DNA of 64,000 bases from Coleofasciculaceae cyanobacterium (lineage in GTDB: Bacteria; Cyanobacteriota; Cyanobacteriia; Cyanobacteriales; Xenococcaceae): NCBI GenBank assembly GCA_036703275.1, contig DATNPK010000082.1, forward strand, positions 86,130-150,129, written 5' to 3'. Within the stretch, counting starts at the first letter, position 1. The number at the start of each line of letters is the position of its first letter. Below the pieces are notes generated by a model. The model made no database searches and was not told where the DNA came from. It was given only the letters and a program-made list of their open reading frames with translations. Both the position numbers and the translations under genes were made by a program. Of the stretch, positions 43,231-57,022 are shown in pieces.

Positions 43231-46200
43231 ATGCTGCCTTCAATTTTTGAAACCTGTATTCCTAGAGAAGAAATACTAGCAGGAGAACTTTCTGTCGATC
43301 TGTTCGCTGCCAAACTACGATCTGTAGTAGAAGGAAAAGCCCCTCAGATATATCAGAATAGTGAAAGTTTCTTTGCCAATACCTTTGCTACAGATGGGAT
43401 TAAAACCCTTATAAGTGAAGTATTTAGCAGGTTAACAGGCAAGTCATCAGGTTCACCTGTGATCAGGCTAGAAACTAGTTTTGGTGGTGGTAAAACCCAT
43501 GATGAGATAGCTTTATGGCATATCTGTAAAGAAGGGAACAGAATTCAAGGTTTAGAAAGATTTGTTGAACCGAATTTAATTCCCGATCGCACTGTACAAG
43601 TTGCCGCAGTTGATGGTAGAGATTTAGACCCCGAAAATGGTATTCATCATCCTAACGGCATCATCACTACGACTCTTTGGGGAGAAATTGCTTATCAAGT
43701 TGGTGGAGTAGAAGGGTATCGATTATTACAGGGAAGCGATCGCTCTGGTATCAGTCCTGGTACGGATGTTTTAGAAAGATTATTAAATGGTGAACCGACG
43801 GTAATTATCTTAGATGAGATTGCCCGTTATTTACGTGCAGCGAAGGCAAAACAGATTGGCAGAAGCGATCTTGCGGAACAGGTTGTAGCATTTCTATTTT
43901 CCTTGATGGATTTAGCAGGAGCTTGTAATAACTTAGTTTTTGTCTATTCCTTGGCTTCAGCTTCCGATACCTTTGCAGACGAGACAATGGAGTTGCAAGA
44001 GTTGATTCGTGCTTCTGCCAGACAGGAAAGAGTATTGAGTCCTTCTACTGATGTTGAGGTCTACAATATTGTCAAACAAAGGTTGTTTAAGAGTGTAGAT
44101 AGTCAGGCTGCATCACAAGCTGCATCTGAATATTTGAGTGTTTATCGTAGTACTCGCGTTAATCTTCCCGATGGTTGCAAAGACGCTAGTTACTCTCAAG
44201 CGATCGCTCAAAGCTATCCGTTTCATCCTGAATTATTTAATCTTTTAACTAAAAAAATTGCTTCCATACCAGAGTTTCAGAGAACTAGGGGGGCATTACG
44301 GTTATTAGCCCAAGTCGTCCAGCATCTTTGGCAAAATCAAATAGAAGATACGCCAATTATTCATCCCCACCATATTCCTGTGGGCAAAGAAAAGCAAATT
44401 ACCGACGATTTAACTTCTCGTTTACAACGCTCATTAATGCGATCGCCGATTGGGGCTGATATATATAATCCTAGTGGGAAACAGGCTTATGCTCAAATCC
44501 ATGACCGTCAATGGCAAGACGCAGGTAAGCCACCGTTTTCTAGTTGGGTGGCACGGACAATATTTTTAAATTCCTTGACTCAAGGTACTTCATCAGGGAT
44601 TCGTCGTACAGAGTTGAACTTATCTCTTTTAACCCCTGGATTAGAAGCAAGTTTCATCGACCAAGCACTAGATAAATTAGCTCAAGTAGCTTGGTATTTA
44701 GATAATGACCCGATTACAACTCTTGCTAGGTTTAAAGAAGAGCCTTCAATCAACAAAATTGTTACCGAAGAAAAAGAACAGGTAGGACGTACTGAAGCGA
44801 AGGATTACTTAAGAAGTCGTCGTGATAGTATTTTTGCCAAGAAAATTTTTACTCCCGTATTTGCTCCTGAAAGTCCTGGAGATGTAGATGATATTCCCGA
44901 TGAGATTGCTTTGTGTTTAATTGACTTTAATGAGGCAACGGTTAAATCGTCTACCGATAGTCCCCCAGATTTAGTGCAGCAGATTTTTGATAATACGGGC
45001 GAATCAGGAAAGTTTCGGGTGTTTCGCAATCGTCTCTTGTTTTTGGTCGCTAATCATCAAGAACTTGATAAAGCCATCGATAATGCTAGAGAATATCAAG
45101 CAATCCGAAATATCTTGGGGAGTCAGACCAGATTAGAAGATTTATCAGAAACTCAGCAGAAACAGCTTAGGGAAAGAGAAGGCGCAAAAGACTTAGAGGT
45201 AAGAATTTCTCTCACAAATGCCTATCGTCATCTATTTTATCCAGCCAAAGATGATGTCAAGGCTCCCAATGGTTTGATGCACTATACTTTACCTCCTCAA
45301 GACTCCAGCACCGTTAAAGGTAAAAATAATCAGCAGGATGTCATCCTTAAGGCGCTTAAGGACTGCGAAAAAATTAGAGCGGAAGATAAAGCAAGTCAAC
45401 CATTTGCACCAGCTTATATTTTGCAAAAGGTATGGTCAAAGGGATTGGATCATTGGTCAACTAAAGCTTTAAGAGATGCGTTTGCCAAGGATTTAAGTCT
45501 CAATATTTTACTCCCAGGGGAATTAACCACTCTACGGGAAACTATTCGCAATGGCTTACAAGATGGTCAGTGGGATCTAAAAATTGGAGACAAAGTTTAT
45601 ATCAAAACTGATGGCACATTAACGTTTCCTGACACCATTGAATTTAGCGATCGCTTTATCTTATATCGTCGGGGAATTCTGCAACCACCTGAACCGAGAG
45701 TTATTGAATTAAATGCTCAGGTGATGTCTAATTCAGAGACAGAAAAACCTGTTAGGATTCGCTGGAAAGCTAAGGGAGCATTAAAGATTAGTCTCCATCA
45801 GGATGGTACTTTAATAACCCAACGGGGCTTACAAGCTGCCGAACCTGCGTCGGCAGACAGCCCCTCAGAATTTCGTCCTTCTGATGAATATGAAACCAAG
45901 ATTAGGGCAAACACTATTTTTCGCCTAGTTGCTGACTACGGAAACGGAGAAACCGCAGAGCAAGAAACTAAGGCTATTGTTGCCCAATCTGGCAGGGTTA
46001 AAGCTACTGGAGGAAATTATGATCCTGGCAATGACCATGAAATCACTGGCAGCATCTTTGAACATCGATCGCCCCTGATCGAATTAGATGGCACTGTTAA
46101 TAAAGTTTTCAATGATTTAGCCGATCTGATAGGCGATCGCAAAATCAAAGAGATCAAATCTCTGGAAATCTCAGTAGACCAAGTGATTGACTATCGTAAG

Positions 46201-46512
46201 CTAGGAACGACGATTCCTTTATTGAGTCGTTTTCCCGTAACTATCGAACAAACCTCGATGCTGCAAACAGTTGACGATCAGTTTGTGAAATTGGAATATC
46301 AGGGACAAGTAAAAGGATTTCAAAGCTTCTTTGGCACAATTAATGGATTACTCAACAATCCAGCAACTCAAGCCAATGTAAACCTCAAATTAATTATCGA
46401 TTTTGGCGATCAACCTATTGCCTCAGAGGGTTCAGAACTCAATACTATCCAGCAAGCTCTTAATCGGAATCCTGTAGAGAGAATCAGTTTTAGTGCGGAG
46501 GTTAAATACTAA
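43231..46512 (+). CDS. DUF499-type P-loop ATPase (defence-island associated)
   Basis: 1093-aa ORF. The N-terminus reads IFETCIPREEILAGELSVDLFAAKLRSVVEGKAPQIYQNSESFFANTFATDGIKTLISEVFSRLTG...LETSFGGGKTH and ILDEIARYL. This matches the DUF499 pattern as I recall it. Confidence 0.75.
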   Translation: MLPSIFETCIPREEILAGELSVDLFAAKLRSVVEGKAPQIYQNSESFFANTFATDGIKTLISEVFSRLTGKSSGSPVIRLETSFGGGKTHDEIALWHICKEGNRIQGLERFVEPNLIPDRTVQVAAVDGRDLDPENGIHHPNGIITTTLWGEIAYQVGGVEGYRLLQGSDRSGISPGTDVLERLLNGEPTVIILDEIARYLRAAKAKQIGRSDLAEQVVAFLFSLMDLAGACNNLVFVYSLASASDTFADETMELQELIRASARQERVLSPSTDVEVYNIVKQRLFKSVDSQAASQAASEYLSVYRSTRVNLPDGCKDASYSQAIAQSYPFHPELFNLLTKKIASIPEFQRTRGALRLLAQVVQHLWQNQIEDTPIIHPHHIPVGKEKQITDDLTSRLQRSLMRSPIGADIYNPSGKQAYAQIHDRQWQDAGKPPFSSWVARTIFLNSLTQGTSSGIRRTELNLSLLTPGLEASFIDQALDKLAQVAWYLDNDPITTLARFKEEPSINKIVTEEKEQVGRTEAKDYLRSRRDSIFAKKIFTPVFAPESPGDVDDIPDEIALCLIDFNEATVKSSTDSPPDLVQQIFDNTGESGKFRVFRNRLLFLVANHQELDKAIDNAREYQAIRNILGSQTRLEDLSETQQKQLREREGAKDLEVRISLTNAYRHLFYPAKDDVKAPNGLMHYTLPPQDSSTVKGKNNQQDVILKALKDCEKIRAEDKASQPFAPAYILQKVWSKGLDHWSTKALRDAFAKDLSLNILLPGELTTLRETIRNGLQDGQWDLKIGDKVYIKTDGTLTFPDTIEFSDRFILYRRGILQPPEPRVIELNAQVMSNSETEKPVRIRWKAKGALKISLHQDGTLITQRGLQAAEPASADSPSEFRPSDEYETKIRANTIFRLVADYGNGETAEQETKAIVAQSGRVKATGGNYDPGNDHEITGSIFEHRSPLIELDGTVNKVFNDLADLIGDRKIKEIKSLEISVDQVIDYRKLGTTIPLLSRFPVTIEQTSMLQTVDDQFVKLEYQGQVKGFQSFFGTINGLLNNPATQANVNLKLIIDFGDQPIASEGSELNTIQQALNRNPVERISFSAEVKY

Positions 46513-56800: not shown

Positions 56801-57022
56801 GCTGAAAATATCTTTTTTGAATCAAAGGGCAATCGCGTCTGGGAAATGACTTACAAAAACAAAGTCTATTCTGTAACTTTTTATCCTGAAGTTTTTGATG
56901 AAAACCCTTCTTTGCGATTGATGACTTTTGGCGATTATTTATTTCAAAAGATATTAGAAGTAATAATTTCTGAACGCGATCGATTATATTGCATTCATCA
57001 GCAAAATACCCACACACCCTAA
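53831..57022 (+). CDS. PLD-family (HKD) nuclease domain fused to an SNF2-family helicase
   Basis: 1063-aa ORF. The N-terminal HKD motif is [24 protein letters not shown]. The helicase motifs are [13 protein letters not shown] (I), [10 protein letters not shown] (II), LSATPMQ (III), and the C-terminal [33 protein letters not shown]. Confidence 0.85.
   Translation: [1063 protein letters not shown]

Follow-up and report, generated by a model that had tools for sequence, protein, structure and literature searches.

The stretch of DNA considered here, which we call the window, comprises 64,000 nucleotides (nt) of a contig from a metagenome-assembled genome (MAG) of a Coleofasciculaceae cyanobacterium. 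It contains a putative defence locus in which an ATPase, a small protein, a DNA methyltransferase and a helicase-nuclease are encoded on one strand. An earlier sequence-only reading described these four genes as a poorly characterised restriction-modification (R-M)-like set formed by a DUF499 ATPase, a DUF3780-like partner, a DUF1156 methyltransferase and a phospholipase D (PLD)/SNF2 helicase. The view of an ATP-dependent, methylation-based system was right in its core, and the four plus-strand genes, their coordinates and lengths and the TAATG (46510-46514) in which the ATPase stop codon overlaps the start of the small gene were borne out. The set does not stand alone, however. The locus holds 12 open reading frames (ORFs), four core and eight embedded ones (mostly toxin-antitoxin pairs), and the core genes are not all adjacent (Table 1). 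The public gene calls on the source contig (proteins HEY9769959-70) agree with this map. The analysis suggests that the locus is a divergent relative of the recently described MANTIS systems, probably disarmed by a nonsense codon in its methyltransferase gene.

The core genes and their recurrence

The class to which these genes can be assigned is already known and has been both classified and studied mechanistically. Rakesh and Krishnan describe DUF499-centred systems as BREX-related (BR) types 1-3, of which type 2, found in 1120 taxa, consists of a DUF499 ATPase, a standalone DUF3780 protein, a DUF1156 methyltransferase and an HKD-Swi2/Snf2 helicase with no TUDOR domain (PMC12839542). The remark in the sequence-only reading that no mechanistic study was known is out of date. 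Gao_RL (= Gao_29; type 2) has been renamed MANTIS, with components MtsA-D, in work on the Pseudomonas aeruginosa system (Shaw et al., bioRxiv 10.64898/2026.09.23.753747); this preprint also mentions that Gao_RL had earlier been tested for restriction of a subset of DNA phages. In MANTIS an asymmetric 6-bp site is hemimethylated, which requires MtsA (with ATP), MtsB and MtsC, and restriction requires all four proteins and favours inverted site pairs. MtsC sets the specificity of both reactions, and one of its loops (amino acids (aa) 37-58), described as the main contact with DNA, enters the minor groove. Deletion of MtsA, MtsB or MtsC each abolishes restriction, the mtsC knockout is non-toxic, and MtsD is a dimer with one composite PLD site that resembles SauUSI (10.64898/2026.09.23.753747). 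A further related set, helicase-methylase-ATPase, was named Hma by the PADLOC authors (PMC8565338). Halomonas HmaA, which carries a C-terminal PD-(D/E)xK nuclease, defends against T4 (PMC11232893), and embedded genes, many of them defences, occur in 62.7% of Hma systems (10.1101/2024.01.29.577857).

Table 1. Features of the locus and its flanks (positions in the window; scores are E-values)
Feature	Position	Strand	Details
Integrase fragment	42634-42867	-	77 aa; Arm-DNA-binding domain only, 2.6e-11
tRNA-3'-half-like fragment	~43033-43080	-	anticodon loop CTCATAA, T-arm, acceptor end
MtsA-like DUF499 AAA+ (ORC/Cdc6-type) ATPase	43231-46512	+	1093 aa, intact
Small DUF7680 protein, MtsB position	46512-46940	+	142 aa
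Embedded ORF, PIN-like by eye only	47156-47623	-	155 aa; 'IDSGVL' (N-terminal), 'LDADIII', 'TTNVKHL'
Embedded partner of the 155-aa ORF	47624-48055	-	longest ORF 143 aa; called as 125 aa, 47624-48001
Embedded MazF/PemK-type toxin	48057-48386	-	109 aa; Pfam PemK_toxin 1.6e-14
Embedded MazE-type (ribbon-helix-helix) antitoxin	48390-48755	-	called as 115 aa, 48390-48737
MtsC-like DUF1156 N6-adenine methyltransferase gene	48694-51528	+	944 codons, broken at codon 39
Embedded orphan ORF	51554-52048	+	164 aa; begins 26 nt past the methyltransferase stop
Embedded HTH_17/excisionase-family DNA-binding protein	52193-52777	+	called as 177 aa, 52244-52777
Embedded PIN_3/VapC50-type toxin	52781-53344	+	187 aa; Pfam PIN_3 2.1e-07
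Embedded DUF1232 (YkvA-like) protein	53372-53659	-	95 aa; Pfam DUF1232 1.2e-13
MtsD-like effector, HKD (PLD) nuclease + Swi2/Snf2 superfamily 2 (SF2) ATPase	53831-57022	+	1063 aa, intact
ParA-like ORF, TrwC relaxase-helicase, coupling protein	57565-63551		directly 3' of the helicase gene

The ATPase, small-protein and helicase genes are intact, and the methyltransferase gene is not. The motifs on which the sequence-only reading had relied (GGGKTH, DEIARY, FAGGGS, DPPYY and HKD) are all present, with core residues that vary hardly or not at all across alignments of 34-67 relatives per protein. The ATPase matches Pfam DUF499 (2.9e-35) and the PADLOC models HmaC (2e-106) and DUF499 (4.8e-52). Its Walker A residues G85-H90 (GGGKTH) and the Walker B pair D195/E196 (the DE of LDEIARY) are invariant in 67 relatives. 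The helicase matches Pfam SNF2-rel_dom (4.5e-18) and Helicase_C (2.7e-19), with RapA as its closest sequence relative in the PDB (1.6e-43), and the core catalytic residues of DEVGLGKT and DEAHH are invariant among aligned relatives. Each helicase chain has a single HKD motif (HxK...D...GSxN), of which H149, K151, D157, G167, S168 and N170 are invariant in 34 relatives and N169 is kept in 33 of them. Pfam PLDc_2 remains below threshold (18.1 bits, cut-off 27), and the HKD assignment is made because of the invariant motif together with the PADLOC models PbeA (7.9e-81, residues 3-452) and PLD_Helicase (4e-80). No DUF3883/NOV_C match was obtained in Pfam, the N-terminus being occupied by the HKD domain; PADLOC models for DrmD, DpdE and BrxH are matched as well. 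At otherwise invariant columns the ATPase, the helicase and the part of the methyltransferase downstream of its stop show one deviation each and the small protein none.

The database names alluded to in the sequence-only reading do exist, as the NCBIfam "anti-phage-associated" equivalogs NF042962, NF042963 and NF042964, but they describe the canonical version from Acinetobacter and Pseudomonas plasmids and their cut-offs are not reached here: the ATPase scores 235.7 bits against DUF499_antiphage (cut-off 1200), the methyltransferase 245.9 bits (1000) and the helicase 388.5 bits against phospholipD_antiphage (1100). Of the three families named in that reading, DUF499 and DUF1156 were recovered by profile searches, the latter when the 156 nt upstream were included and the stop was read through, and DUF7680 was found instead of DUF3780.

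The small protein is not DUF3780 by any sequence test. It matches Pfam DUF7680 (1.3e-45), and in Pfam DUF3780 was not found even at E<=10. Alignment of the two families with hhalign gave a probability below 1%, and the DUF7680 hidden Markov model (HMM) gave genuine DUF3780 sequences 7.7 bits at most, compared to 4.7 bits for shuffled controls. Membership of DUF3780 was rejected on these three grounds. What the two families have in common is the operon slot and the order of secondary structure elements, bbb-aa-b-aaaa (b, strand; a, helix), in AlphaFold models that are confident for DUF7680 (pLDDT 91.5) and poor for DUF3780 (pLDDT 50.7). A weak but consistently placed alignment of the C-terminal helices (M-S-x-E-E-x-x-Y-W in DUF7680, L-R-P-E-E-R-W-W in DUF3780) was also found, and an N-terminal ASCH fusion is present in six of ten long DUF7680 proteins scanned; some DUF3780 members are likewise fused to ASCH domains (PMC12839542). 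A Foldseek search with the DUF7680 model gave nothing below E 0.04 in the PDB and BFVD, hence no fold match, and the PADLOC BrxA model was matched marginally (8.8e-4). The 142-aa protein has 318 homologues, those listed all being 140-143 aa long and 65-100% identical, and the family comprises 407 representative clusters at E<=1e-3. DUF7680 is not mentioned in searchable papers, and a look for cyanobacterial accessions in the supplements of PMC12839542, where DUF7680 loci might have been counted as "DUF3780", returned nothing usable.

The co-occurrence of the four genes is far beyond chance. With the small protein alone as bait and one genome per species, 195 encoding stretches were found, of which 80 loci were fetched, all from cyanobacteria or cyanobacterial-type MAGs. 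An ATPase gene was detected upstream in 77 of these 80, so the association in other genomes on which the sequence-only reading depended does exist. The ATPase gene mostly ends within ~80 nt of the small gene and otherwise up to ~840 nt away. The methyltransferase and helicase genes usually follow downstream on the same strand where the contig reaches that far; a few loci lack one of the two or have it truncated, and in one (L008) both are on the opposite strand. The DUF7680-type four-gene operon is also found on plasmids of Allocoleopsis, Aminobacter and Haloplanus. On a Nostoc plasmid the slot of the operon is occupied by a 142-aa protein, a candidate DUF7680 member.

The interrupted methyltransferase gene

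The methyltransferase gene starts with ATG at 48694, and its codon 39 is an in-frame TAA (48808-48810). The methyltransferase of 892 or more aa in the sequence-only reading has the motifs ascribed to it, but it is the remnant of this longer gene, annotated as 48850-51528 (TTG start, 892 aa) or 48880-51528 (ATG start, 882 aa). These restart codons are in frame, 39 and 69 nt past the TAA. The 892-aa remnant is named 'DNA methylase' by NCBI (HEY9769965.1), and the 882-aa product is also on record from a second contig.

The frame upstream of the 892-aa ORF reads MTKTQRPQVFIEKIMPVKLLNQQVYYEHGGNPFKWLHR*YSRKPLSFSRASVL..., in which the TAA stands in place of the Trp codon (TGG) of the signature GLHRWYSRKPL. 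With a neighbouring Gly>Trp change at 48796-48798, the window reads KWLHR*YSRKPL. The signature reads KGLHRWYSRKPL in all 63 related loci as well as in L001, L002, L087 and L088. The motif ...NPFKGLHRWYSRKPL... occurs in 63/63 genome loci and likewise in two homologues on plasmids and two near-identical relatives from metagenomes, and the 63 loci are identical across GNPFKGLHRWYSRKPLS, the most conserved part of the methyltransferase. The DNA of the window carries three unique substitutions here (G>T and GG>AA), all within 15 nt; of the 90 nt compared with L011, the first 87 show no other difference. The canonical Acinetobacter Gao_RL homologue has W-K-G-R-K-P, a W-x-x-R-K-P signature, at aa 47-52, and the DUF1156 signature probably corresponds to the DNA-binding loop of MANTIS MtsC.

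The DUF1156 domain is not contained in the 892-aa ORF itself. Pfam DUF1156 is detected (26.7 bits, cut-off 24) only across the stop, and the ORF aligns with family profiles only from profile position ~160-180 on. Beyond that point the enzyme appears complete: it matches Pfam N6_N4_Mtase (1.9e-07) and the PADLOC models HmaB (2.9e-67) and DUF1156_MTase (2e-53), and motif I (FAGGGS) is followed by a Zn-ribbon target recognition domain (TRD) with two CxxC pairs and then by motif IV (DPPYY). FAGGGS and the four Zn-ribbon cysteines are invariant in 52 relatives, and DPPYY is kept in 51-52 of the 52.

Two other origins of the lesion were considered and rejected. Insertion of the minus-strand toxin-antitoxin genes did not sever the N-terminus, as coding is contiguous from ATG 48694 and the stop and a single adjacent codon are the only changes in the N-terminal coding sequence. 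A general decay of the locus is contradicted by the count of at most one invariant-column deviation per core protein, which is below that of many relatives. The lesion looks recent because none of the four proteins shows an excess of changes at invariant columns. Among close relatives, L087 has an intact methyltransferase gene of 982 aa. In L088, a relative from a metagenome with an ATPase that clusters with that of the window at 90% identity, the methyltransferase gene (7876-10653) carries an independent nonsense codon, Tyr>TAG, directly after DPPYY, which splits it into calls of 538 and 343 aa. A rough automated tally of disrupted genes gave ~10 of ~65 loci for the methyltransferase, 5 of 73 for the ATPase and ~3 of 41 for the helicase; it contains contig-end and duplicate artefacts, and no claim is based on it.

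Embedded genes and genomic surroundings

Four minus-strand ORFs (47156-48755) separate the small gene from the methyltransferase gene, and four more (51554-53659) lie between the methyltransferase and helicase genes. The first four are common only to the closest relatives (L006-L011), and the gene calls of L088 match in the same slot. The 155-aa ORF is called as a gene on the source contig and is common only to the close relatives L007, L009 and L011; L088 has a 155-aa gene in the same position and a 96%-identical DNA match over 47156-47361. No match to it was found in Pfam, NCBIfam or PADLOC, and the PDB gave only a non-significant one (E 0.3). The ORF that abuts it is kept in L006, L007, L009 and L011 and has no family match in Pfam, NCBIfam and further profile scans. 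The MazE-type antitoxin matches NCBIfam TA_MazE_antitoxin (1.2e-06) and, weakly, Pfam RHH_1 and CcdA; its longest ORF overlaps the 5' end of the methyltransferase gene on the opposite strand.

In the second gap, the 164-aa ORF had no match in Pfam, PADLOC or NCBIfam, only non-significant ones in the PDB (E>=0.15) and a 90%-identity cluster of one, and it is absent from the related loci searched. Either this is an orphan gene or the ORF is non-coding. The HTH_17 protein (Pfam HTH_17 4.6e-10; TIGR01764 8.4e-13) is the probable antitoxin of the adjoining PIN_3 gene, for which the source contig carries a precomputed PF26343 VapC50_C annotation. The orphan ORF, PIN_3 and DUF1232 genes were not found in L001-L086; L087 and L088 do have the HTH_17/PIN_3 pair, in the same gap between methyltransferase and helicase genes. 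Of the eight embedded genes, five run opposite to their host system. The reported share of embedded genes that point the same way as their host is 96.7% for Hma, BREX, DISARM and type I R-M systems (10.1101/2024.01.29.577857).

The cargo varies among loci. Allocoleopsis PCC 7113 has an antitoxin-sized ORF and a PIN gene, Nostoc ATCC 53789 a ThiF/multiubiquitin set, ImmA/IrrE and a PIN gene, and L087 a Y1-transposase-like gene and others. The distance to the methyltransferase match from the small gene ranges from 0.2 to 7.4 kb and that from methyltransferase to helicase from 0.1 to 2.7 kb. The two intergenic gaps of the operon probably act as insertion hot spots; here they hold three toxin-antitoxin-like pairs, one orphan ORF and the DUF1232 gene. 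In the Nostoc sp. ATCC 53789 plasmid pNsp_c (L002, 1387-6701) the gap between small and methyltransferase genes contains a ThiF-family adenylyltransferase, a multiubiquitin-domain protein and helix-turn-helix (HTH) plus ImmA/IrrE genes, a ubiquitin-like conjugation set embedded in a defence operon. In L077 (16088-16216 and 17051-17251) and L049 (~5886-6005) a decayed copy of the first ~43 methyltransferase codons is found upstream of a two-gene cassette, reading LHGWYSRKPL and LHR*YSRKPL, respectively; in L077 the intact methyltransferase start comes after the cassette. These duplicates look as if they had been left behind when a cassette recombined into the conserved 5' end. A duplicated start of the methyltransferase gene as a general flank of embedded cassettes was rejected, since no more than 2 of 70 loci show it.

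Downstream of the helicase gene, the TrwC relaxase-helicase (969 aa, 9.1e-78) and a TrwB/TraG-type T4 coupling protein (T4CP; 533 aa, 1.9e-86) are encoded together with a ParA-like ORF that has only a sub-threshold CbiA/ParA match (E 0.042). The helicase-to-TrwC junction is also present in the close relative L087. On the other side, the integrase fragment and the tRNA-like piece, which is not called by ARAGORN or Rfam, are probably an att/integrase scar at the left edge of a mobile element. Plasmid-borne homologues are numerous, and taken together with the TrwC and T4CP genes, the integrase and tRNA-like fragments and the junction shared with L087, they indicate that the locus is cargo of an integrated conjugative or mobilisable element. 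Megablast against plasmids gave partial matches only (74-79% identity). Rfam and ARAGORN detected only two tRNAs, both well outside the locus, and promoter and terminator scans found sites no more numerous than in shuffled sequence. Further upstream, a small-ORF cluster (40374-41243) includes an XRE-type HTH (61 aa, minus strand), a RelE/HigB-like fragment (55 aa, minus strand) and an 89-aa HTH protein (plus strand). These ORFs are toxin-antitoxin-like or regulatory, with weak PADLOC matches only (HTH_VI 3.2e-07).

Function and relation to known systems

We consider it probable that the locus is a MANTIS-like (Gao_RL/type-2 BREX-related) defence locus of a divergent lineage, with DUF7680 in place of DUF3780, disarmed in mtsC and carried on a conjugative or mobilisable element. 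The class assignment is made because three of the four proteins have the appropriate domain matches and the genes follow the order ATPase, small protein, methyltransferase and helicase on one strand, as in the published definition of type-2 BR. The mechanism can be inferred by homology with Pseudomonas MANTIS. The DUF499 AAA+ ATPase would load the DUF1156 methyltransferase on a short asymmetric site, with the small DUF7680 protein as an MtsB-like factor that stimulates the ATP-dependent hemimethylation of the host's own DNA. Where foreign DNA lacks the modification, this A-B-C complex would instead license the dimeric HKD-Swi2/Snf2 motor-nuclease, which is then expected to translocate and to cut preferentially between inverted site pairs.

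That the four genes carry the activities expected of such a machine, as the sequence-only reading had it, is probably untrue of this copy in view of the nonsense codon. Because the TAA falls within the methyltransferase signature, and because MtsC is needed for methylation and restriction in MANTIS whereas its knockout is non-toxic, the system appears to be disarmed. Most likely this happened recently and harmlessly, with the other three core genes still intact.

Several observations weigh against this interpretation. The homologue from which the mechanism would be borrowed is only 22-28% identical in its ATPase and 24-25% in its methyltransferase, and the small subunit does not resemble MtsB/DUF3780 significantly. 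Type-1 BR/Hma proteins give the ATPase and methyltransferase higher scores than Gao_RL proteins do, so site type, orientation rule and the need for a small protein could differ from MANTIS. The stop codon comes from a metagenome assembly, and translation could restart at TTG 48850 or ATG 48880. A protein without its first 52-62 residues is presumed to be inactive, and the proposed equivalence of signature and DNA-binding loop uses the numbering of the Acinetobacter homologue, not the Pseudomonas protein's own.

The first alternative is that the system is fully functional, either because the TAA belongs to a minority allele or arose as an error in the assembly or its consensus, or because the shortened methyltransferase made from 48850 or 48880 works. 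The MAG origin of the sequence, the two in-frame starts shortly after the stop, the presence of all catalytic motifs and the near-absence of invariant-column deviations in the three other core proteins and the rest of the methyltransferase would all be consistent with this. We nevertheless find it unlikely. The lesion consists of three substitutions, including a GG>AA dinucleotide change, and is not a homopolymer slip; records of the truncated product exist for two contigs; and the lost segment is the most conserved part of the protein, the part that Pfam sees as DUF1156 and the region reported as the main DNA contact in MANTIS (10.64898/2026.09.23.753747). The nonsense codon at another position in L088 shows that the methyltransferase gene is lost naturally.

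A second alternative, that this is an Hma/type-1 BR system in which the helicase-nuclease alone is the effector, as for Halomonas HmaA, seems very improbable. It can point to the best PADLOC models (HmaC for the ATPase and HmaB for the methyltransferase, with HmaA also matched at 1.1e-66) and to BLASTP scores of these two proteins that are higher for the Thermus and Rhodococcus type-1 proteins than for Gao_RL. The gene order is not helicase-methylase-ATPase, however, and the helicase has an N-terminal HKD domain, lacks a DUF3883/NOV_C match and scores 194-212 bits against Gao_RL helicases but 117 against type-1. Moreover, the ATPase has no HEPN fusion, and a conserved small protein is present that is absent from type-1 (PMC12839542). 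A chance neighbourhood in a defence or mobile island, made up of an orphan methyltransferase, a DISARM/Dpd-like SNF2 helicase, an unrelated ATPase and toxin-antitoxin modules, hardly deserves consideration: eight unrelated genes, five on the opposite strand, do separate the core genes and the helicase does match DrmD, DpdE and BrxH models, but no DrmA/DrmB, PglZ or Dpd partner was found among the locus ORFs with Pfam and PADLOC. Dozens of cyanobacterial genomes, and also plasmids from other phyla and from archaea, have the four genes together in this order while the cargo changes, which argues directly against it.

For the preferred interpretation of a disarmed MANTIS-like locus, the only new elements are the DUF7680 sub-lineage, which searchable papers do not discuss, and the mtsC-null state as it occurs in nature. 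The sub-lineage is widespread, and profile-based finders likely split it between Hma and Gao_RL models. The mtsC-null state would be a natural example of a prediction derived from MANTIS, that loss of the methyltransferase disarms the system without autoimmunity. Both operon gaps take varied cargo in cyanobacteria, here toxin-antitoxin cassettes, which extends the "embedded defence" observation made for Hma. A bolder proposal, which we put forward only tentatively, is that DUF7680-type operons form a separate DUF499 lineage in which the MtsB role is filled by an unrelated or fold-level-related protein and mtsC nonsense mutation is a recurrent, non-toxic off-switch. Such operons occur in cyanobacteria (the 195 stretches, from one representative genome per species) and also on alphaproteobacterial and haloarchaeal plasmids; their architecture is type-2, with an ATPase and methyltransferase nearer to type-1. 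The independent nonsense codons in the window and L088 may reflect such recurrent switching-off. If the proposal is true, DUF7680 could reveal what the MtsB co-factor does, because it offers a confident structural model and recurrent ASCH fusions.

All four kinds of MANTIS component are encoded in the locus, on one strand and in the order known from annotated Gao_RL-type operons of Acinetobacter and Pseudomonas plasmids, and such operons are often borne on plasmids or other mobile genetic elements. The alpha-group N6-adenine (N6A) methyltransferase with Zn-ribbon TRD, the DUF499 AAA+ ATPase and the HKD(PLD)+SF2 helicase-nuclease are alike, and a standalone small protein lies between the ATPase and methyltransferase genes, the same position as in the 80 related loci. 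By motif, PADLOC and Pfam the effector fits the HKD+SF2 architecture of type 2, and it appears to lack a TUDOR domain. Differences are the DUF7680 protein of 142 aa instead of a DUF3780 protein of ~195 aa, the low identities, the NCBIfam cut-offs that are missed widely, the fact that no Arc/CopG MtsR gene was seen upstream, and an operon that is split by eight embedded genes and interrupted in mtsC. BLASTP scores of the ATPase are 403-429 bits against non-cyanobacterial DUF7680-type proteins, 260-261 against type-1 and 124-134 against Gao_RL. For the methyltransferase, with the intact L087 homologue as proxy for that of the window, they are 367-405, 130-166 and 105-162 bits (up to 279 against type-1 across the DUF7680 group), and for the helicase 264-588, 117 and 194-212 bits. 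By these scores the locus groups with the other DUF7680-type operons, separate from both.

Hma/type-1 BR systems provide the closest sequence relatives of the ATPase and methyltransferase outside the DUF7680 clade and the best PADLOC matches to both, and they have a similarly strong tendency to carry embedded genes between core genes (10.1101/2024.01.29.577857). Their gene order is reversed to helicase-methylase-ATPase, as opposed to ATPase-small-methylase-helicase here. Type-1 helicases have an N-terminal TUDOR and a C-terminal PD-(D/E)xK domain rather than the HKD N-terminus, and type-1 ATPases often carry HEPN and are not accompanied by a small subunit (PMC12839542), unlike the ATPase described here.

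Type-3 BREX (BrxC, PglXI, BrxHII, PglZ, BrxA, BrxF) is similar in its ORC/Cdc6-type ATPase, to which BrxC is related, its alpha-group N6A methyltransferase with a TRD insert and its Swi2/Snf2 helicase (PMC12839542), and PADLOC gave PglXI (3.7e-17) and BrxHI/HII (2.2e-73) matches in the locus. It differs in that the nuclease here is an HKD domain fused to the helicase, and no PglZ, BrxB or BrxF was found among the 12 locus ORFs with Pfam and PADLOC. For DISARM, no DUF1998 protein is present in the locus, and only the helicase matches DrmD/DrmA models, through its SF2 core. Finally, SauUSI also combines a PLD nuclease with an SF2 translocase in a dimer with one composite HKD site, and Type III and Type ISP enzymes are alike in methyltransferase-directed targeting and in the orientation-dependent cleavage reported for MANTIS (10.64898/2026.09.23.753747). 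SauUSI reads methylated cytosine with its own TRD, whereas in the present system recognition is expected to come from a separate methyltransferase-ATPase complex, with unmodified DNA as the target.

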